Under the pieces are notes generated by a model, which did not search any database, was not told the DNA's origin, and saw only the letters and a list, made by a program, of their open reading frames with translations. A stretch of DNA of 64,000 nt from Gammaproteobacteria bacterium (GTDB lineage: Bacteria; Pseudomonadota; Gammaproteobacteria; Eutrophobiales; Eutrophobiaceae): contig CBDCDS010000003.1 in the NCBI GenBank assembly GCA_965215365.1, forward strand, positions 864,001-928,000, written 5' to 3'. Position 1 is the first letter of the stretch. Each line of letters starts with the position of its first letter. Both the position numbers and the translations under genes were made by a program. Below are positions 15,914-54,829 of this stretch, piece after piece.

Positions 15914-16606
15914 ATGTTGGTCGTCATGGGGAATGCGTACCGAGGGTCGAAAGCCACGACGGGTCTGTGCCAGCCGCTCATTGCGATGATGCCGCCGCAC
16001 AGTGTGTACATTGAGACACACTTAGGCGGCGGGGCGATTATGCAGCGCAAGCCGGCGGCGTTGCGCAACATTGGGATTGATCTTGATGTGCGGGCGTTGG
16101 CGGGGTTTACGTGTGGGTATCCGGTGGAGTTGGTGCAGGGGTGTTGTCACCGCTGGTTGGCGACTTTTCCGTTTGACGGCACGGAGTTGGTGTACAGCGA
16201 CCCGCCCTACCTGCACAGCACGCGCAAGTCACGGCACCGTTACCGGTATGACTACGAGGACTCAGACCATGAGGCGCTGCTGGCGTTACTGCAGGGGCTG
16301 CCCTGTGCGGTGATGGTGTCGGGGTATCCTTCGGCCTTGTATGATGAGGTGCTGGCGGGCTGGCGCAGTGTGTCCTTGCAGGTGATGAATCAGGGCGGGG
16401 TGGTGACCGAGCGGGTCTGGTTCAATTTTGTGCCGGACCGGGTGCACTGGGTGCGCTATGCGGGGCGCAACTTCACGCACCGCCAGCAGGTCAAGCGCAA
16501 GGCTGAGAACTGGGGGCGGCGTTATCGTGACTTGCCCCCGGCCGAGCGGCTGGCGGTGCTGGCGGCGATGATGGCGGTGGAGGCACAGTGCACATGGCCA
16601 CGGTGA
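15914..16606 (+). CDS. Dam/D12-class DNA adenine methyltransferase
   Basis: YRGSK, YIETHLGGGAI (SAM-binding motif I), YSDPPY (motif IV), MVSGY. Confidence 0.85.
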   Translation: MLVVMGNAYRGSKATTGLCQPLIAMMPPHSVYIETHLGGGAIMQRKPAALRNIGIDLDVRALAGFTCGYPVELVQGCCHRWLATFPFDGTELVYSDPPYLHSTRKSRHRYRYDYEDSDHEALLALLQGLPCAVMVSGYPSALYDEVLAGWRSVSLQVMNQGGVVTERVWFNFVPDRVHWVRYAGRNFTHRQQVKRKAENWGRRYRDLPPAERLAVLAAMMAVEAQCTWPR

Positions 16607-18111
16607 ACAAGGCCTCATTGCGTGCGGAGTTCGAGGCCATCCGAATGCGTTTTAAGGCGTTGTGCGCCGACGGCGCGCTGAGTCCCGAAGGGCGTGCGCT
16701 GTTCGAGTCGATGTTGCTGCTATTCGAGTTGCTGCTGGCGGTGTTCTTAGAGAAGACCACACCGAAGGGGGCGCACAACTCCAGCCTGCCCAGTTCCCGC
16801 ACCGACCCCGATGACAGTGCGCGCACACGGCCCGGCAAGCAGGGCAAGGGGCCGCAGACCGGGACGGTGCCCAGCGCGTCCCGGCGCGTGGTGGCTCAGA
16901 CCCGCACGGTGCCCGTGACCGGCTGCCGGGCCTGCGGGCATGATCTCAAAGGCACCGCCCCCACCGGCCATGTGCGACGAGTCAAGGTCGATATAGTCTT
17001 CGAGACGACCGAGTTGACCATTGACGCCGAGATAAAAACCTGTCCGCGCTGTGGCACTGAGACCCACGGGGCGTTTCCCGATGACATGCCGGGGCCTTTA
17101 CAATACGGCCCTGGCATCGTGGCTTTCGCCACGCACCTGTTAACGGCCCAAATGCTCTCGCTCAAACGTACGGCGCAGACACTTCATGCACTGACCGGGC
17201 GCGCCGTCGCCGAGGCGACCTTACTGGCCTGGCTCACGCGGGTGCATGAGGCCCTGGCCGGGTGGGAGCGGGCGGCTATCGCCCGCCTGCTCACAGAGCC
17301 CGTGCTGCACGCCGATGAGACCTCCTTGCGCATCGACCGCACACAACACTGGCTGCACAGCACCAGTGCCGGGAACCTGGTACTGAAACACTGCCACCGC
17401 AAGCGGGGCGGGGACGCCCTCAAGGACATCGGCATCGTCCCCCGCTACGGCGGTGTTCTCGTGCACGACCGCTGGGCCAGCTACTTCGCCTATGACAACT
17501 GCGAGCATGCCCTGTGCGGCAGTCACCTGTTGCGTAACTTGGCCTTTATCGAGGACGCCCACGGCCATGCCTGGGCCCAACGTATGAGCCGCCTCCTGCT
17601 CAAGACCTGCCGACAGGTGCGCACACATAAAAACAAGGCACTCAGCGAGACCGACTACCAGTCCCTGCGCACCCGCTACCGGACTATCCTGACACAAGCC
17701 AAACGGGAACTCCCCACACCCCCGAAACGGCTCACCGGCCAACGCGGACGGATTGCCCAATGTGAGGCACAAAACCTCCATGATGCCCTCGTCAAGTACG
17801 AAACCGAAGTCCTCCGCTTCGCCCGCGACCCCAACGTGCCGTTCACCAACAACCGCGCCGAACGCGATATCCGTATGGCTAAAGTCAAACAAAAAGTCTC
17901 CGGCTGCTTCCGAACCACCGCCTACGCCGACACCTACTGCCGCATCTCCAGCTACTTGCAGTCTATGACCCTGAAGGGCTACAATCCCCTCGCCGCCATC
18001 GAGATAGCACTCAAGGGAGACGCCGCCACCATGGTGGAAAAACCGCTCAAAAATAAAACGGTTAAGAAAAACCAGATCAGAACAAGAGATCAGGGTAAGG
18101 GGGGCGAGTAG
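16588..18111 (+). CDS. IS66-family transposase (TnpC-like)
   Basis: NSSLPSS, CxxC...CPRC zinc ribbon, LHADET, LVHDRW, FTNNRAERDIR. Confidence 0.93.
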   Translation: MHMATVNKASLRAEFEAIRMRFKALCADGALSPEGRALFESMLLLFELLLAVFLEKTTPKGAHNSSLPSSRTDPDDSARTRPGKQGKGPQTGTVPSASRRVVAQTRTVPVTGCRACGHDLKGTAPTGHVRRVKVDIVFETTELTIDAEIKTCPRCGTETHGAFPDDMPGPLQYGPGIVAFATHLLTAQMLSLKRTAQTLHALTGRAVAEATLLAWLTRVHEALAGWERAAIARLLTEPVLHADETSLRIDRTQHWLHSTSAGNLVLKHCHRKRGGDALKDIGIVPRYGGVLVHDRWASYFAYDNCEHALCGSHLLRNLAFIEDAHGHAWAQRMSRLLLKTCRQVRTHKNKALSETDYQSLRTRYRTILTQAKRELPTPPKRLTGQRGRIAQCEAQNLHDALVKYETEVLRFARDPNVPFTNNRAERDIRMAKVKQKVSGCFRTTAYADTYCRISSYLQSMTLKGYNPLAAIEIALKGDAATMVEKPLKNKTVKKNQIRTRDQGKGGE

Positions 18112-37631: not shown

Positions 37632-38681
37632 ATGTTCAGCAGGTTACGAGGATATTTCTCCAGCGATCTATCGATAGACCTGGGTACGGCCAATACCCTG
37701 ATCTATGTGCGCGGCAAAGGTATTGTCTTAGACGAGCCTTCCGTGGTTGCCGTGGGCAAAACAGAACACGGCGCGACCAACATGAAGGCTATCCGCGCAG
37801 TGGGCGCCGCGGCCAAGAATATGCTGGGGCGCACGCCCGAGCATATCCAGGCGATCAGACCGCTGAAAGACGGGGTCATCGCAGATTTCACGCTCACCGA
37901 AAAAATGCTCCAGTATTTCATCCACTCGGTGCATGGCGATACTTTTTTCAAGCCCAGCCCCAAGGTGTTGATTTGCGTCCCCTGCGGCTCGACACAGGTG
38001 GAGAAACGGGCGATTCGTGAATCGGCGTTAGGCGCCGGGGCGAGAAAAGTTTACCTGATAGAAGAACCCATGGCGGCGGCGATGGGCGCCGGCATGCCGG
38101 TGGGCGACGCCAGCGGTACCATGATCCTGGATATCGGTGGCGGCACCACCGAAGTTGCCGTGATTTCTCTGAACGGTATCGTTTATTCGGCTTCGGTGCG
38201 CATCGGTGGCGACCGGCTCGATGAGGCCATTATCAATTACATACGCAGGAACTACGGTTCGCTGATCGGCGAAGCGACTGCGGAGAACATAAAAAAGACC
38301 ATCGGTTGCGCGTTTCCACCCGATGAGGTCAAGGAAATGGAGATCCGGGGGCGCAATCTGGCTGAAGGCATCCCGCGCAGCTTTACCATCAGCAGCAACG
38401 AAATTCTCGAAGCGTTGCAGGAGCCGTTGACCGGGATCGTGGAAGCGGTGAAACACGCCCTGGAAAAAACACCGCCCGAACTCGGCTCCGACGTGATCGA
38501 ACGGGGGATCGTATTAACCGGTGGCGGCGCCTTGTTGCAGGATCTGGACCAGCTGCTGATGAAGGAGATTGGCCTTGCGGTTGTGGTGGCCGAAGATCCG
38601 TTGACCTGTGTGGTGCGCGGCGGCGGCCGCTTTCTTGATCTGCTGGATGAACTGGGTGAGGAAATCCTGGTATTTGAGTAG
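37632..38681 (+). CDS. mreB: Rod shape-determining protein MreB
   Basis: [25 protein letters not shown]; ATG after AGGA. Confidence 0.97.
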
Positions 38682-38695
38682 CGGAGCACAAGGCG

Positions 38696-39553
38696 ATTAA
38701 CACCTTATTCGTCAACAGGCTCTTACCACAAGTCAAGCTGGTATTGTTTGTGCTGGTTTCGATAGCCCTGATGGTGACCGATCACAAGTACCTGCACCTC
38801 GACGTTTTTCGCAGCGGTATCTCCACCATGGTGTATCCGGTCCAGTACACCGCCAGCCTGGTGGTCGAACTGCCGCGCCGGGTGGTCACGGCGTTGGCCC
38901 CGAGGCAGGCCTTGCTGGAAGAAAATGCCCGGCTCCGGGAAGAGCAGCTCAGCCTGCATTCCCGCTTACAGCAGGTGGCTGCGCTGGAAGATGAAAACCG
39001 GCGCCTGCGGGCTTTGCTGGACGCGCCGGTGGCGCTGCATGAGCGGGTGCAGGTAGCGGAACTGATCGGTGTTGAACTGGAACCCTTCCGCAAAAAGGCG
39101 CTCATCAACAAGGGTCAGGCGCACGGGGTATTTGCCGGTCAAGCCCTGGTCAATGCCGGCGGGATCATGGGCCAGATTATTCATGTTTCGCTGTTGTCAA
39201 GCACGGTGCTGCTGCTCACCGATCAGGCGCATTCAATACCGGTGCTGCTGAACCGCAATGGTTTGCGCGCGGTAGCATCCGGCCTGGGTGAAGACAACGT
39301 ATTGACGCTGGAATATATCCCGCTCAGCGCCGACATCAGGGAAGGTGATCTGGTCGTCTCATCCGGTCTGGGGCGGAAATTTCCCAGAGGTTATCCGGTG
39401 GGCGCCGTAGCCAGCGTCCGGCGCGAGCCGGGCGAGTTGTTCGCCAGCGTCCGGTTGACGCCCAGCGCTAAAATCGGCATGACCCGCGAGGCTTTGCTGC
39501 TGTGGCCGGACCCGTCGGACGCCGCGGCCTCCGATATGGCCATGTCACCTTGA
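38696..39553 (+). CDS. mreC: Rod shape-determining protein MreC (probable ATT start)
   Basis: ENRRLRALL, INKG, SSGLG..FP.GYPV; operon position. Confidence 0.92.
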   Translation: MNTLFVNRLLPQVKLVLFVLVSIALMVTDHKYLHLDVFRSGISTMVYPVQYTASLVVELPRRVVTALAPRQALLEENARLREEQLSLHSRLQQVAALEDENRRLRALLDAPVALHERVQVAELIGVELEPFRKKALINKGQAHGVFAGQALVNAGGIMGQIIHVSLLSSTVLLLTDQAHSIPVLLNRNGLRAVASGLGEDNVLTLEYIPLSADIREGDLVVSSGLGRKFPRGYPVGAVASVRREPGELFASVRLTPSAKIGMTREALLLWPDPSDAAASDMAMSP

Positions 39554-39572
39554 CGCCGCGCGCCGGACCTGG

Positions 39573-39811
39573 CCCGCAGATCTCACCGAGTGATGCGAAG
39601 ATCGCGCCGGATTGGTTCTGCCTGCGGGTGCCTGCGACCGAAACCATAGCGGTAGCTATGGTTGAACAAGCACGTGCCCGCAGGCAGAACCAAGACCCGC
39701 GAGGGCGCATCAAGCGCAGTGGGTTATGCGGAAAGAGTAGCAGTATGATCATCACTTATTGAGAGCAATGATGTTTCACAAAGCAACAAGCGACTGGGTG
39801 AGATATGCGGG
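39573..39811. mobile_element. MITE family A between mreC and mreD
   Basis: TIRs CCCGCAGATCTCACCGAGT / ACTGGGTGAGATATGCGGG; flanks CTGG and CTAG. Confidence 0.85.
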
Positions 39812-40284
39812 CTAGCGGCAGTGTGGCGATATTGCTCAGCTTTGTCGTCGCCCTGATCCTGACCAGTGTGCCACTGCCGGCAGCGCTGGCTGCGTGGCGT
39901 CCGTCCTGGGTTGCCATGACGCTAATGTTCTGGTGCCTAGTGCTGCCCGACCGGGTCGGCATCGGCAGCGCCTGGGTACTGGGCCTGCTGCTGGATGCGC
40001 AGGGTGGCGCCTTGCTGGGTCAGAATGCCCTGGGGCTTTGCATCATCGCTTATCTGACGTTGCGCCTGCATAAACAAATCAGGGTGTTTCCGCTCTTGCA
40101 ACAATCGGTTGTCATCTGTTTTTACCTGTTGTTGCTGGAGTTTTTCACCCTGTGGATCCGTGGCATCACCGGCGTGCCCCCACAGCACTGGACATTCTGG
40201 GCGCCGGCGGCAAGCAGCATGTTATTATGGCCGTTGTTCTTCTCTGCCATGAACGCGGTGCGCCATAAATATAAAGCCCTCTGA
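39805..40284 (+). CDS. mreD: Rod shape-determining protein MreD
   Basis: WRPSW, PDRVGIG, GLLLD, LGQNAL. Confidence 0.93.
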   Translation: MRASGSVAILLSFVVALILTSVPLPAALAAWRPSWVAMTLMFWCLVLPDRVGIGSAWVLGLLLDAQGGALLGQNALGLCIIAYLTLRLHKQIRVFPLLQQSVVICFYLLLLEFFTLWIRGITGVPPQHWTFWAPAASSMLLWPLFFSAMNAVRHKYKAL

Positions 40285-40305
40285 ATAGTCCGCAACCGGC
40301 CTGCC

Positions 40306-42171
40306 ATGGCAACATTGAGCGCAAAAATCCGCACCGACCAGCGTATCGTCCTGGTGCACCGGCGCATTTATCTGGCCGCAACGCTGTGCTTGCTGGTTAT
40401 GCTGATGCTTATGGCACAGGTGTTGCGCCTGCAAGTCATCAGACATGAGCATTTCACTGCCTTGTCCATGGATAATCAGATCAAAATTGTGCCGGTGGCG
40501 CCGCCCCGAGGGCGCATCTTCAGCAGTGACAAGGTGCTGCTGGCCGATAACCGCCTTTCCTTCAGCCTGGAACTGGTGCCGGAACGGGTGACGGACGAGC
40601 CCGCGCTGCTGGCGCAATTAAGCCGGTTTGTTGCCATCTCCGCGCAGGATATTGAGCGTTTCCGGGAACTGAGAAAAGGCCGACGCCGGTTCGAAGGCGT
40701 GCCCCTGAAGTCACATCTGGATGATGCCGAGGTCGCGGTCATTTCAGCGAACCGACACCTGCTGCCCGGGGTGGATGTGGTGGCGAGTTCAGGGCGGTAT
40801 TATCCGCTGGCCCGGAGTCTGGCGCACACGGTCGGGTATGTGGGGATGATCGATGCCGCAGAGTTTGAAAAACTGAACAGGGCCATCTACCGCGGCACCA
40901 ACCATATCGGCAAGTCCGGCATTGAGAAAGCCTACGAAAGCCTGTTGCATGGTTCTCCCGGCTACGAGCAGGTGGAAGTAAACGCCCAGGGCAGAGTCAT
41001 CCGCAACATTTACCGGAAGCCGCCAGAGCCGAGTAAAGACCTGTACCTCACCGTTGATGCGTCCCTGCAGCTGCTTGCGGTACAGGCGTTGAACGACCGC
41101 CGCGGCGCCATTGTAGCGCTGGACAACCGTAGCGGCGCAGTGCTGGTTGCCGCCAGCACACCCGGGTTCGACTCGAACCTGTTTGTCGGCGGCATCGACA
41201 GTAAGGTCTATGCCCGACTGCTGCGGTCAAAGGGCACCCCGCTGTTGAACCGGACCCTGCAAGGGACCTATCCGCCCGGCTCGACCATCAAACCCATGCT
41301 GGCGCTGGGCGGCCTGCAGCAGGGACTGCGCGCACCCGAGGATACCACTTGGTGTCCTGGCTGGTTTTCACTGAAAGGCAGTTCCCGCCGCTACCGCTGC
41401 TGGAAACGGGAAGGCCATGGCCATTTGGACGCGGCCAGCGCCATTTTCCAGTCCTGCGATGTGTATTTCTACGTGCTGGCCCGGGACCTGGGTGTAGATG
41501 CCCTGCACGATACGTTAACGGGCTTCGGCTTCGGCCAACCCACCGGGATTGATATTGGCGGCGAGCGTGCCGGACTGATTCCTTCGACCCGCTGGAAACG
41601 GGAGGCGCTGGGGCAGCCCTGGTATCCCGGAGAGACCATGAGCGTCGGGATAGGACAGGGCGCGACCCTGGTGACGCCTATGCAACTGGCCACAGCGACC
41701 GCGGTGATTGCCAATCGCGGCCGGCAGGTGCGCCCCTATCTGCTCGCGGAAGCGCGAGATTCGGTGACGGGACAGTCAGTCATTCGGGCGGCTGCCAGAC
41801 CCGGGCGCGAGGTAGTCTTCGCAGAGCCCGAGTATTGGGACCGGATCATTCATTCGATGCAGGAAGTCGTGCATGGAGAACGCGGCACGGCACGCGCATC
41901 AGGCGCCGGCGCCAACTACCGGTTTGCCGGCAAGACCGGCACCGCGCAGGTGATTGGCATAGCCCAGGGCGAAGAATACGATGAGGATAAGATCCCCGAA
42001 GAATTGCAGGACCATGCCTTGTTCATTGCATTTGCGCCGGTGGAGGCCCCCGAAATCGCGCTGGCGGTAATCGTTGAAAACGGCGGCGGCGGCGCCCGCA
42101 CCGCGGCGCCGATAGCCAGGGAGCTGCTGGACCACTACTTTCACAAGAAGCGCCGGGAACGCCACGGATGA
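40306..42171 (+). CDS. mrdA: Penicillin-binding protein 2
   Basis: YPPGSTIK, SCD, GKTGTAQ. Confidence 0.96.
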   Translation: MATLSAKIRTDQRIVLVHRRIYLAATLCLLVMLMLMAQVLRLQVIRHEHFTALSMDNQIKIVPVAPPRGRIFSSDKVLLADNRLSFSLELVPERVTDEPALLAQLSRFVAISAQDIERFRELRKGRRRFEGVPLKSHLDDAEVAVISANRHLLPGVDVVASSGRYYPLARSLAHTVGYVGMIDAAEFEKLNRAIYRGTNHIGKSGIEKAYESLLHGSPGYEQVEVNAQGRVIRNIYRKPPEPSKDLYLTVDASLQLLAVQALNDRRGAIVALDNRSGAVLVAASTPGFDSNLFVGGIDSKVYARLLRSKGTPLLNRTLQGTYPPGSTIKPMLALGGLQQGLRAPEDTTWCPGWFSLKGSSRRYRCWKREGHGHLDAASAIFQSCDVYFYVLARDLGVDALHDTLTGFGFGQPTGIDIGGERAGLIPSTRWKREALGQPWYPGETMSVGIGQGATLVTPMQLATATAVIANRGRQVRPYLLAEARDSVTGQSVIRAAARPGREVVFAEPEYWDRIIHSMQEVVHGERGTARASGAGANYRFAGKTGTAQVIGIAQGEEYDEDKIPEELQDHALFIAFAPVEAPEIALAVIVENGGGGARTAAPIARELLDHYFHKKRRERHG

Positions 42172-43259
42172 AAGAAGTCAGCCTGACGGAAAAACTGCAT
42201 ATCGACGCGCCGTTACTCGGCGGCATTCTGGCGTTGTGTCTGATTGGCTATATCACCTTGTACAGTGCTGGCGGCCAGAGCACGGCCTTGCTGATCCGGC
42301 GTAGCGTGCATCTGGTCATGGCACTGGCAGTCATGTTTGCCATTGCCCAGACGCCGCCGGCGCGCCTGTCCGGGGCGTCGCTGTTGTTCTACCTGGCCAG
42401 CCTGTTACTGCTGACGCTGGTACTGTTTTTTGGTGAAACAGGCAAGGGCGCGCAACGCTGGCTGGGCCTGGGCCCGGTGCGCTTTCAACCTTCGGAACTG
42501 ATGAAACTGGCCCTGCCCATGGTCATCGCCATGTATTTGAGTAAGCAGCTGCCGCCGCCGAGCATAACGAAAGTCTGCATGGCGCTGGTCCTTATCGCCA
42601 TACCGGTATTGCTGGTCGCCAGGCAGCCGGACCTGGGCACCGCGCTGCTGATAGCCGTCAGCGGTTTTGCCGTACTGTTCATCGCCGGCATAAGCTGGAA
42701 ATTGCTGGGGGGATTTGCGTTGCTGGCGCTGTCGTCGGGGCCGGTGATATGGAACCTGATGCATGATTACCAGAAGCGACGCGTGTTGACGTTTCTGGAC
42801 CCGGAGCAGGACCCGTTAGGCGCCGGGTATCATATTATTCAATCTCAAATCGCCATCGGTTCCGGCGGGCTGTACGGCAAAGGCTGGCTGAACGGGACCC
42901 AGTCGCACCTGGAATTCCTGCCGGAGCGGACTACGGACTTCATTTTTGCGGTGTTCTGCGAGGAATTCGGACTGATCGGGGTGTGCCTCCTGGTAAGCCT
43001 GTACCTGTTCATCATTGCCAGAGGGCTGTATATTTCCGTACAGTCCCAACAGCTGTATGGAAAGTTGCTGGGAACGGGTGTTACCGCGGCATTTTTTGTC
43101 TATATTGCCGTTAATATGGGGATGGTGACGGGGCAATTGCCCGTAGTCGGCATACCGCTGCCGTTAATCAGCCATGGCGGCACTTCCATGATGACGATGA
43201 TGGCAGGATTCGGTATCCTCATGGCTATTCACACCCATAAACGAATACTGTCGGATTGA
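42168..43259 (+). CDS. rodA: SEDS peptidoglycan glycosyltransferase RodA
   Basis: GAQRWL, QPSELMK, QPDLGT, TDFIF. Confidence 0.96.
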   Translation: MKEVSLTEKLHIDAPLLGGILALCLIGYITLYSAGGQSTALLIRRSVHLVMALAVMFAIAQTPPARLSGASLLFYLASLLLLTLVLFFGETGKGAQRWLGLGPVRFQPSELMKLALPMVIAMYLSKQLPPPSITKVCMALVLIAIPVLLVARQPDLGTALLIAVSGFAVLFIAGISWKLLGGFALLALSSGPVIWNLMHDYQKRRVLTFLDPEQDPLGAGYHIIQSQIAIGSGGLYGKGWLNGTQSHLEFLPERTTDFIFAVFCEEFGLIGVCLLVSLYLFIIARGLYISVQSQQLYGKLLGTGVTAAFFVYIAVNMGMVTGQLPVVGIPLPLISHGGTSMMTMMAGFGILMAIHTHKRILSD

Positions 43260-48016: not shown

Positions 48017-48022
48017 AGCTAG

Positions 48023-48078
48023 CCCGCATATCTCACCAAGTGATGCGAAGATCGGGCCGGATTGGTTCTGCCTGCGGG
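48023..48078. repeat. Left end of MITE family A (repeated at 49214-49269)
   Basis: CTAG-CCCGCATATCTCACCAAGTGATGCGAAGATC... Confidence 0.85.
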
Positions 48079-48932: not shown

Positions 48933-49505
48933 GCAAACTCCGAACAGCATACCGGTCGATGTAGCGCCGGAATCACACCTGCCCTTCAGGTCCCCAGCGA
49001 ATAATTTGTCCTCTTCAAATCACTCTCATAAAGGACAGCGGCATCACCAACGACCCCAACGACTGGTCCGATGACCCGCGTTACATTCTTAACCTGCTGC
49101 AAAAAGTGGTATGCGTAAGCATGGATACCATCAAAATCGTCAACAGCCTGCCCGAACTGGACCCGGTTACGGATTCCACAGGGTATAAGCGTGGCTTTCG
49201 TAGGTGAAGCTAGCCCGCATATCTCACCAAGTGATGCGAAGATCGCGCCGGATTGGTTCTGCCTGCGGGAGTAAAGGCCTTTTTATTTCAAGCCCGAGTG
49301 ATGTAGAATGTCTCTCCTGAGCTGTTAACAGATGTAAACGTTATGTATGCAGTGATAAAAACCGGTGGTAAACCGTGTGCGGCGCAGGCAGGGGGCACAG
49401 GGTGGAGCAGCCCGATGTCAGGGCAGCCTGTTGTTGGCGCCATCAATGCCGGCGCGAACGCCGACAGGATAGACTGAGCCGCCGCTTCACTGAGAGGATT
49501 TTGCC

Positions 49506-54519: not shown

Positions 54520-54829
54520 CCCGCATATCTCACCAAGTGATGCGAAGATCGCGCCAGATTTTTTGCGCCTGCGGGTGACTGCGAACGAAAGCATAGTGGT
54601 TCTCTGCTTGAGTGACAAATCGGCAGGACTGCCGATTTGCACGGCGTCAGCCGCCCGTAGGGTTGCGTCCATGGATGGACGCAATGAACAGGTGCCCGCA
54701 GGCGCAAAAAAGACCAGCGAGGGCGCATCAAGCGTAGTGTGTTATGCGGAAAGAGCAACAGTATTATCATAACTTATTGAGAGCCATCATGTTGCCTAAG
54801 GCAATAAGCGACTTGGTGAGATATGCGGG
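54520..54829. mobile_element. MITE family A between tatA and tatB, with an extra internal structured segment
   Basis: Perfect 19-bp TIRs CCCGCATATCTCACCAAGT / ACTTGGTGAGATATGCGGG; TTAA duplicated at 54516-54519 and 54830-54833. Confidence 0.9.

Follow-up and report, generated by a model that had tools for sequence, protein, structure and literature searches.

A MITE in codon 7-8 of mreD probably supplies the start of the gene in a gammaproteobacterium

The window analysed here is a stretch of 64,000 nt from Gammaproteobacteria bacterium GCA_965215365.1 (contig CBDCDS010000003.1, positions 864,001-928,000), and coordinates refer to it unless another contig is named. In this window a 239-bp MITE (miniature inverted-repeat transposable element; 39573..39811, forward strand) lies within codon 7-8 of mreD, a cell-shape gene, and comparison with relatives supports the conclusion that its insertion severed the body of the gene from the native start. 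Taken together, our results make it probable that mreD is kept expressed by a Shine-Dalgarno (SD)-like sequence and an ATG codon, both carried by the end of the element's right terminal inverted repeat (TIR).

As it can now be read, mreD extends from 39805 to 40284 on the forward strand and encodes 159 residues followed by TGA, beginning MRASGSVAILLSF. Residues 6-149 align with positions 3-152 of the 154 in the MreD equivalog profile TIGR03426 (115.7 bits against a cut-off of 34.85, E = 1.7e-33), and the open reading frame (ORF) also matches PRK11060 (E = 1.4e-28). The gene is present in one copy in the genome, its product is 95% identical to MreD of G006 and 89% identical to that of the sister species G005, and MreD was found in 40 of the 41 genomes searched (this genome, G000, and 40 relatives). 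The proposed present start, ATG at 39805..39807 (forward strand), stands inside the right TIR in the context GGGTGAGATATGCGGG|CTAG and is the same in four sequencing runs. A preliminary description of this DNA had placed that ATG within the right repeat and had read from it an MreD of normal length, and both the sequence and the profile match agree with it.

What is left of the native 5' end lies upstream of the element at 39550..39572 (forward strand) and comprises a TTG start in a TTGA overlap with the mreC stop, codons 2-7 and the left target-site copy. The remnant 39550-39568 reads TTG-ACG-CCG-CGC-GCC-GGA-C and is followed by CTGG, the MITE, CTAG and C-GGC-AGT-GTG. In the two closest relatives, G006 (L032) and G005 (L033), the corresponding site is empty and reads GGAC|ATAG|CGGC. 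The G006 locus is ...GTC-GCC-TTGA-CG-CCG-CGC-CCC-GGA-CAT-AGC-GGC-ACT-GTA and that of G005 is TTG-ACA-CAG-CGC-GCC-GGA-CAT-AGC-GGC...; in both the TTG overlaps the mreC stop, and the MreD N-termini are MTPRPGHSGTVAI and MTQRAGHSGSVAI, respectively. MreC is encoded directly 5' of MreD in the loci of all 29 relatives examined (tblastn with the mreC protein), and the insert in mreD is absent from every one of these loci. Measured as a raw gap, the MreC and MreD matches lie 12-74 nt apart in 22 of 22 same-genus genomes and 255 nt apart here, where 251 nt separate the mreC stop TGA (39551-39553) from the mreD body; the insertion adds 243 nt, or 81 codons, to the locus. In the relatives a TTG or ATG situated 7-9 codons ahead of the V7 position opens the mreD frame, and it either overlaps the mreC stop or adjoins it.

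From the native TTG of the present genome only a dead-end ORF of 70 codons can be read (39550..39762, forward strand, in the same frame as ORF 39502..39762), which passes through the left repeat and the hairpin of the element. Its stop, TGA 39760-39762, falls 45 nt before ATG 39805, and further in-frame TGA codons follow at 39769 and 39799. Virtual excision of the element puts the native TTG back in frame, 8 codons upstream. The displacement of the native start, which the preliminary description had proposed, is thus upheld by the empty sites with TTG at the mreC stop, and when the mreC-mreD junction was compared in MITE-free relatives, as it had suggested, no ATG was present at the position of 39805 in any of them. 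The interval given there, 39573..39815, includes the right target-site copy; the element proper is 39573-39811, and its site is codon 7-8 of mreD, not a spacer between genes. The expectation that precise loss could be deleterious is not supported, as the native TTG survives with its first six codons unbroken and excision restores the frame.

The element combines the properties of a MITE, namely TIRs, a target duplication, many small dispersed copies without a transposase gene, and empty sites. Its boundaries follow from 45 full-length copies with sharp ends CCCGCA...TGCGGG and from the empty site in relatives. The left TIR (39573..39591, forward strand) is of the CTG type, CCCGCAGATCTCACC..., and the right TIR (39793..39811, forward strand) is of the ATG type, ...GGTGAGATATGCGGG. 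Counted with the flanking target-site copies, CTGG at 39569..39572 and CTAG at 39812..39815, the two arms make up an inverted repeat of 23 nt (39569-39591 and 39793-39815) with 87% complementarity. A long central hairpin with 39-nt arms, 77% complementary, occupies 39612..39693. The SD-like GGTGA lies at 39797..39801 on the forward strand, 3 nt 5' of the ATG.

The best account of these features can be stated as follows. A non-autonomous 239-bp MITE with a 4-bp YTAR duplication entered mreD codon 7-8 in the lineage of this species, cutting the gene body from the native TTG that overlaps the mreC stop. The right repeat, ...GGTGA-GAT-ATG-CGG-G, has an outward SD-like sequence and an ATG whose frame is open through YTAR. 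The new MreD would begin MRAS-GSVAILL in place of MTPRxGHS-GSVAILL, four residues shorter and with an arginine kept before the first membrane helix, and the supply of a start would be a general property of the MITE family.

Four candidate starts of mreD were compared by the duplex energy between the 3' tail of the genome's 16S rRNA (...GGATCACCTCCTT) and the 20 nt before each codon. ATG 39805, preceded by GGTGA with a 3-nt spacer, gave the best value (-8.3 kcal/mol), followed by TTG 39832 (-7.0 kcal/mol), GTG 39823-39825 on the forward strand, codon 7 (-2.5 kcal/mol), and the native TTG 39550 (-2.3 kcal/mol), which would depend on coupling to mreC. Were TTG 39832 the start, the first hydrophobic stretch would be truncated. 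On these sequence grounds ribosomes would be expected to start at ATG 39805.

The arrangement at mreD recurs elsewhere in the genome. Each repeat end of the ATG type, read outward, gives ATG CGG GYT ARN; frame +1 is also open through the duplication, and frame +2 hits the TAR stop. A census with a 15-nt end motif, allowing at most 2 mismatches, returned 297 matches in the genome, or 281 after the removal of 16 IS66-like look-alikes; 174 of these 281 ends are ATG-type (190 before removal) and about 97 carry CTG in that place. Outward ORFs of at least 100 codons number 38 in the ATG frame and 19 in frame +1 at ATG-type ends, compared with 11 and 17 at non-ATG ends, an excess in the ATG frame with binomial p = 0.008 and Fisher p = 0.015.

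The 49 long ORFs were compared with NCBIfam, and the next in-frame starts were listed. In 12 of the 38 ATG-type ORFs the profile alignment has its N-terminus at residue 2-10, with no further in-frame ATG, GTG or TTG ahead of it. These are BamB (residues 5-402 on profile positions 3-376 of 377, next in-frame start at codon 14), GlyS (6-710 on 1-684, codon 16), a CinA-like protein at two loci (4-222 on 5-236, no next start in the first 60 codons), PrlC (3-678 on 2-678 of 680, codon 38), DeoC (3-209 on 3-209, codon 20), HldE (10-472 on 9-473, codon 20), HisB (2-197 on 2-197, codon 19), RppH (9-164 on 1-156, codon 19), RadA (3-452 on 2-454, codon 47), MetF (5-274 on 1-274, codon 25) and a weakly matching FAD oxidoreductase (9-56 on 3-51, codon 19). 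Signal peptides or membrane helices make six more cases likely: Lnt, TolB, an MFS protein and the ORFs at L078, L100 and L108. Other ORFs have a methionine of their own soon after the repeat ATG (ArgD M7, LipA M5, MetZ M27, HMG-CoA lyase M12 and RegB M11), and 9 of the 11 long ORFs at non-ATG ends have their own start at codon 4-19. The genome-wide count of TIRs overlapping gene starts, which had been suggested at the outset, therefore adds 12 ORFs in which the repeat end is the only start compatible with the family. It also makes the term 'domesticated', used for the mreD start in the preliminary description, too strong: the insertion is better described as tolerated, its rescue being due to a feature present at about two thirds of the family's ends (174 of 281).

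Orthologues in five relatives, with empty sites, revealed start displacement in all three further genes tested, glyS, radA and hisB. The N-terminus changes from MTTLKKDLLFE to MRVKKDLLFE in glyS, from MTKTRARKQYQC to MRAKARKQYQC in radA and from MSNNRQAAVDR to MRARQAAVDR in hisB, where the MITE copy is truncated and no left repeat occurs within 700 nt. The repeat-derived N-termini predicted for GlyS and PrlC are (M)RVKKDLLFETGTEELPPK and (M)RVNPLLENLTLPAFDR. Since glyS is single-copy and essential, the repeat ATG or an equivalent must work there. A left repeat lies within 450 nt in 21 of the 38 ORFs; for 17 of these 21, removing the element in silico brings an upstream start into frame, two of the 17 being uninformative because the flank is another MITE copy. 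Twelve loci, mreD included, were taken forward, and in these the start restored by excision is 3-11 codons upstream. G005, the sister species, has 34 ATG-type ends, of which 4 lead into long ORFs in frame 0, and three of the four fit family N-termini (PrpC, 3-303 on 2-302; FhcD, 1-292 on 1-295; GlnS, 8-303 on 13-308). Collectively, these comparisons indicate that this repeat end has taken the place of the start in at least a dozen other genes here, many of them housekeeping genes, and in a few of the sister species.

The two CinA-like copies (G000:C3:572569-573618, L082, and 787552-788601, L087) share the MITE-derived N-terminus MRVSAGLIIIGNEIL..., and it seems that gene duplication carried the MITE end along with the gene.

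The family is abundant in this genome and widespread in the genus. The interval 39554-39830 gives 93 BLAST matches in its own 2.73-Mb genome, 45 of them full-length with identities of 82-100% and with the ends CCCGCA...TGCGGG kept in 45 of 45. Identical 4-nt flanks surround 25 of the full copies and YTAR stands on both sides of 30; over the 297 motif matches the flanks are TTAA (84), CTAA (59), TTAG (58) and CTAG (25). Shorter variants with the same ends measure 130-136 bp and 195 bp. Of the 22 other species of the genus, 20 have the 239-bp family, at 73-90% identity, and 18 have the exact ATG-type end with YTAR, which numbers 121 copies here, 34 in G005 and at most 18 in the other 21.

Several further observations concern the family as such. 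Exact copies of the CTG-type end GGTGAGATCTGCGGG number 49 here and 2 in G007, and the 21 other genomes of the genus lack it; this confinement, the ATG type being genus-wide, points to a recent subfamily burst in this genome. Two or three MITE copies arrayed head to tail at a period of 243 nt, with one YTAR (or CTGG) common to neighbours, occur at G000:C3:104497-105221, 178766-179489, 664072-664553, 785021-785743, 1092078-1092559 and 1858935-1859659 and at C1:2804-3285, a pattern suggesting that a new copy enters the duplication next to one already present. The window has three further ATG-type ends and a 310-bp element bounded by two of them (48019-48037, 49210-49228 and, for the element, 54520-54829); none of these ends opens a long ORF outward in the ATG frame (15-18 codons). 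In G005 an ATG-type end at G005:C1:1764175-1764193, about 2 kb upstream of mreD and near the start of the mre operon, opens a 32-codon ORF.

The insertion persists in other strains. Twenty public runs from 9 studies, none recorded as RNA, contain the stretch or part of it. In all four runs examined, from four studies, contigs carry both MITE junctions, and none joins across the element. No single contig spans the MITE, as the contigs break inside the repeat: the left-junction contig extends from mreC to 39601 or 39607 and the right-junction contig from 39783 or 39786 through mreD. Runs X6 and X10 represent diverged strains in which the flanks are CTAG and CTAG (39572 G>A) and the SD-like sequence and ATG are unchanged. 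Since both have A at 39572, CTGG in the present genome is a later change. The differences of X6 and X10 are synonymous third-position changes at four of four sites in mreD, and synonymous at four of five in mreC. These results point to an insertion older than the divergence of the strains and to an mreD that is still constrained.

The constraint bears directly on whether mreD is instead a young pseudogene, inactivated by the insertion and left with a fortuitously open frame from the repeat ATG. A genome of 2.7 Mb, third smallest of the 23 in the genus (2.6-5.0 Mb), fits relaxed selection, as does the accumulation of exact ATG-type ends relative to G005 and the other species. Yet the 159-codon frame is intact and highly similar to that of G006, the insertion is common to diverged strains in which every mreD difference is synonymous, mreC and the ORFs on either side of mreD are intact, and the same design recurs at the single-copy essential gene glyS. 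We regard inactivation as very improbable. Even harder to credit is a scheme in which ribosomes initiated at the native TTG read through the whole MITE by recoding TGA, giving MreD an 81-residue N-terminal insert. The insert is exactly 81 codons long and its sole in-frame stops, at 39760, 39769 and 39799, are all TGA. Such a product would require three readthroughs in succession, whereas mreC and mreD both terminate at TGA where family-length products should, the full-length NCBIfam alignments of the 49 ORFs end at table 11 stops, and other insertions of the family are out of frame, the native start and the new ATG of glyS and of radA lying in different frames. Recoding was therefore rejected, and the multiple-of-three insert with its all-TGA stops was taken as coincidence.

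A less drastic alternative is that translation begins at GTG 39823 (MAILLSF...) and that the repeat ATG is an unused coincidence. This codon had been offered as a possible start, at about 39823, in the preliminary description, and it is indeed in frame, ahead of the first hydrophobic stretch and outside the predicted TIR-TIR stem; moreover, the MreD profile alignment begins at residue 6. Its SD duplex is, however, far weaker than that of ATG 39805 (-2.5 vs -8.3 kcal/mol), and it is not the ancestral start, because G006 has GTA at this position and most other relatives TGG. Every relative places 7-9 residues, with R, K or H among them, before this position. A GTG start would leave no charged residue before the helix, while MRAS retains an arginine, like the native MTPR(A/P)GHS. 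Finally, the 12 other ORFs lack such a downstream alternative, yet their genes are intact. Initiation at the GTG is in our view improbable, though less so than inactivation of the gene.

Several points weigh against initiation at ATG 39805 and against the wider reading built on it. Which start site is used constitutes the main residual uncertainty, and the profile cannot separate ATG from GTG, as a start at GTG 39823 loses only TIGR03426 positions 3-4. The predicted TIR-TIR stem hides the SD-like sequence and the ATG, so that use of the ATG needs a hypothetical melting step. The flanks of the element are imperfect (CTGG/CTAG) and the empty site of the relatives is ATAG, not CTAG, so that an extra A to C substitution has to be assumed in the present lineage. 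The 38 ATG-frame ORFs include two probable non-MITE matches (L074 and L091), the two CinA loci are one duplicated event, and G005 has no frame-0 excess (4 long ORFs vs 10 in frame +1). Among the strains, the assembly may itself derive from one of the four runs, and four synonymous differences are a small number. Three metatranscriptome runs of one host label contained almost none of the sequence words of the stretch.

Folding predictions suggest how the melting step might be met. The RNA of 39545-39850 folds at -157 kcal/mol compared with a mean of -109 for shuffled sequences (z = -8.2), the left TIR pairing with the right TIR; the fold of the right end alone (39763-39850) is unremarkable (z = -0.35). 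The SD-like sequence and ATG comprise 12 bases, and at 11 of 12 loci 10-12 of them pair to the left TIR; at 12 of 12 the ORF that opens at the retained native start passes over the whole left repeat. At radA the TAA of the duplication terminates the native-start ORF, 8 nt past the A of the new ATG. The terminal repeats may thus pair in the transcript and bury the SD-like sequence and ATG, and ribosomes started at the TTG, coupled to mreC, may translate the 70-codon ORF over the left repeat, melt the stem and expose the new start. Structure-mediated translational coupling in RNA phages resembles this proposed relay. A more speculative extension, which we put forward as possible but rather unlikely, is that the MITE family is built to survive in the first codons of genes. 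Both of its ends would carry an outward SD-like sequence and ATG in the one frame that stays open through YTAR, and, the ends being paired in the mRNA, the new start would be exposed only by translation from the native start across the left end. The relay would pass the original control (here coupling to mreC) to the new start, and the family would colonise the 5' ends of essential genes, rewriting N-termini genome-wide.

Start-supplying repeats have been described before. In MITEAba12 of Acinetobacter baumannii, outward TIR bases give MQQS to the neighbouring coding sequence in three records, and the authors noted that start codons at the element ends could permit fusions (Adams and Brown 2019, PMC6382973). 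The likeness is that of a TIR-bounded MITE feeding start residues to a neighbouring coding sequence. In the portion of that paper available to us, the three cases are at the annotation level, without orthologue proof, and an outward promoter is predicted (PMC6382973). At mreD, by comparison, an SD-like sequence precedes the ATG, relatives reveal displaced starts, the genes involved differ in number and kind (at least 12 other ORFs besides mreD) and no promoter-like site was found; the sequences and the target (YTAR) are unrelated to those of MITEAba12.

The REP2 repeats of Neisseria and the IR repeats of Borrelia place a promoter, ribosome-binding site and ATG upstream of genes, and like the mreD MITE they fuse a translational start to host reading frames (Delihas 2011, PMC3184786). 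The ribosome-binding site and ATG of REP2 have their counterpart in GGTGA 3 nt before the ATG, in the frame apparently used by mreD and the 12 ORFs. As characterised in the available part of that source, REP2 has no TIRs and no known transposition, carries a promoter and sequence resembling a 5' untranslated region, and is linked to coordinated regulation (PMC3184786). The mreD MITE has TIRs, target duplications and empty sites and does not share the combination of own promoter and lack of TIRs; it is REP2-like in function but belongs to another family.

The known attributes of Correia elements of Neisseria, whose sequences are unrelated to the mreD MITE, are outward promoters, an IHF site and processing by RNase III, and these elements are not known to supply start codons. 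They resemble it as abundant TIR-bounded MITEs that are co-transcribed, alter the expression of neighbours and form a long RNA stem from their paired ends (CREE; mentioned in PMC3184786). Our literature searches on MITEs and translation starts returned no bacterial paper on a MITE that replaces starts on this scale, beyond those on MITEAba12 and REP2. The principle has published precedents in these two, and mreD adds an instance and an operon context, not a new principle.

By its target the element resembles the IS5 family of insertion sequences (IS). The IS5 target is YTAR (PMC5009759), a 4-bp YTAR duplication also flanks the copies described here, and MITEPsy1/ISPsy2 of Pseudomonas syringae make a 4-bp duplication (PMC3189936). 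The likeness consists in small TIR elements without coding capacity and a 4-bp duplication (CTAG or YTAA / YTAR). The TIR sequence is not that of the MITEPsy1/ISPsy2 ends given in PMC3189936, being GGAAGGTCTGAAAAAGCC there and CCCGCAKATCTCACC in the mreD MITE, and MITEPsy1 insertions in coding sequences are described, in the part of PMC3189936 available to us, as frame-changing, not start-supplying.

No autonomous IS sharing the ends of the MITE turned up in this genome, where the end pairs 0.9-2 kb apart were partly inspected and no transposase was shown to be enclosed; DDE_3 (IS630-type) had no match in the genome. DDE_Tnp_1 genes exist, and the one with mapped ends has the unrelated TIR CCCGACTTCGACGGT; two other DDE_Tnp_1 loci have no ends matching the MITE. 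The mapped element is a 1.9-kb IS with a 570-codon DDE_Tnp_1 frame at G000:C3:358303-360209, with three more full copies (four in total), and one copy adjoins a MITE end. The sequence GGTGCGCTATGCGGG was considered as a related TIR and rejected, as it lies in the coding region of an unrelated IS66-like element with 16 near-identical copies. This element, about 2.3 kb or more, is found in the window at 15914-18111 and in 15 other places in the genome. Its ORFs encode 230 residues (15914-16606) and then a 507-residue transposase-like protein (16588-18111), GGTGCGCTATGCGGG being inside the first, and a 1.6-kb IS66-like probe gave 15 full-length matches at 100% identity and one copy in two pieces. 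The look-alikes of the end motif within it have no long outward ORF, and therefore only the end denominators are affected.

The cell-shape operon in the window has the order mreB, mreC, mreD, a PBP2-like ORF and a RodA-like ORF. The mreC ORF, as taken from the ORF list, occupies 38744..39553 on the forward strand. Downstream, also on the forward strand, the PBP2-like (40306-42171) and RodA-like (42168-43259) ORFs together span 40306..43259, their names being our reading of the translations; a strongly polar insertion in mreD would silence both. A scan of 38600-40400 found no promoter-like (sigma-70-like) site and two terminator-like sites, both at 38617-38631 and outside the MITE. An Rfam scan of 39300-40100 returned no family above its gathering score. 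The best of the microRNA-hairpin look-alikes in Rfam reached 28.5 bits against a gathering score of 66.7, and these were taken as chance matches to the long hairpin.

These findings bear on how such genomes are read and on how the element lives in them. At sites of this kind, annotators and gene-calling programs will put starts in the wrong place or report pseudogenes. A selfish element can sit in the 5' end of mreD, glyS or hisB without lethality, the MITE end acting as a portable translation start. The space of tolerated insertions is thereby widened, and many proteins gain a shared MR(A/V)x N-terminus. The retained native starts, together with the predicted TIR-TIR stem, constitute a natural and testable case of long-range translational coupling.

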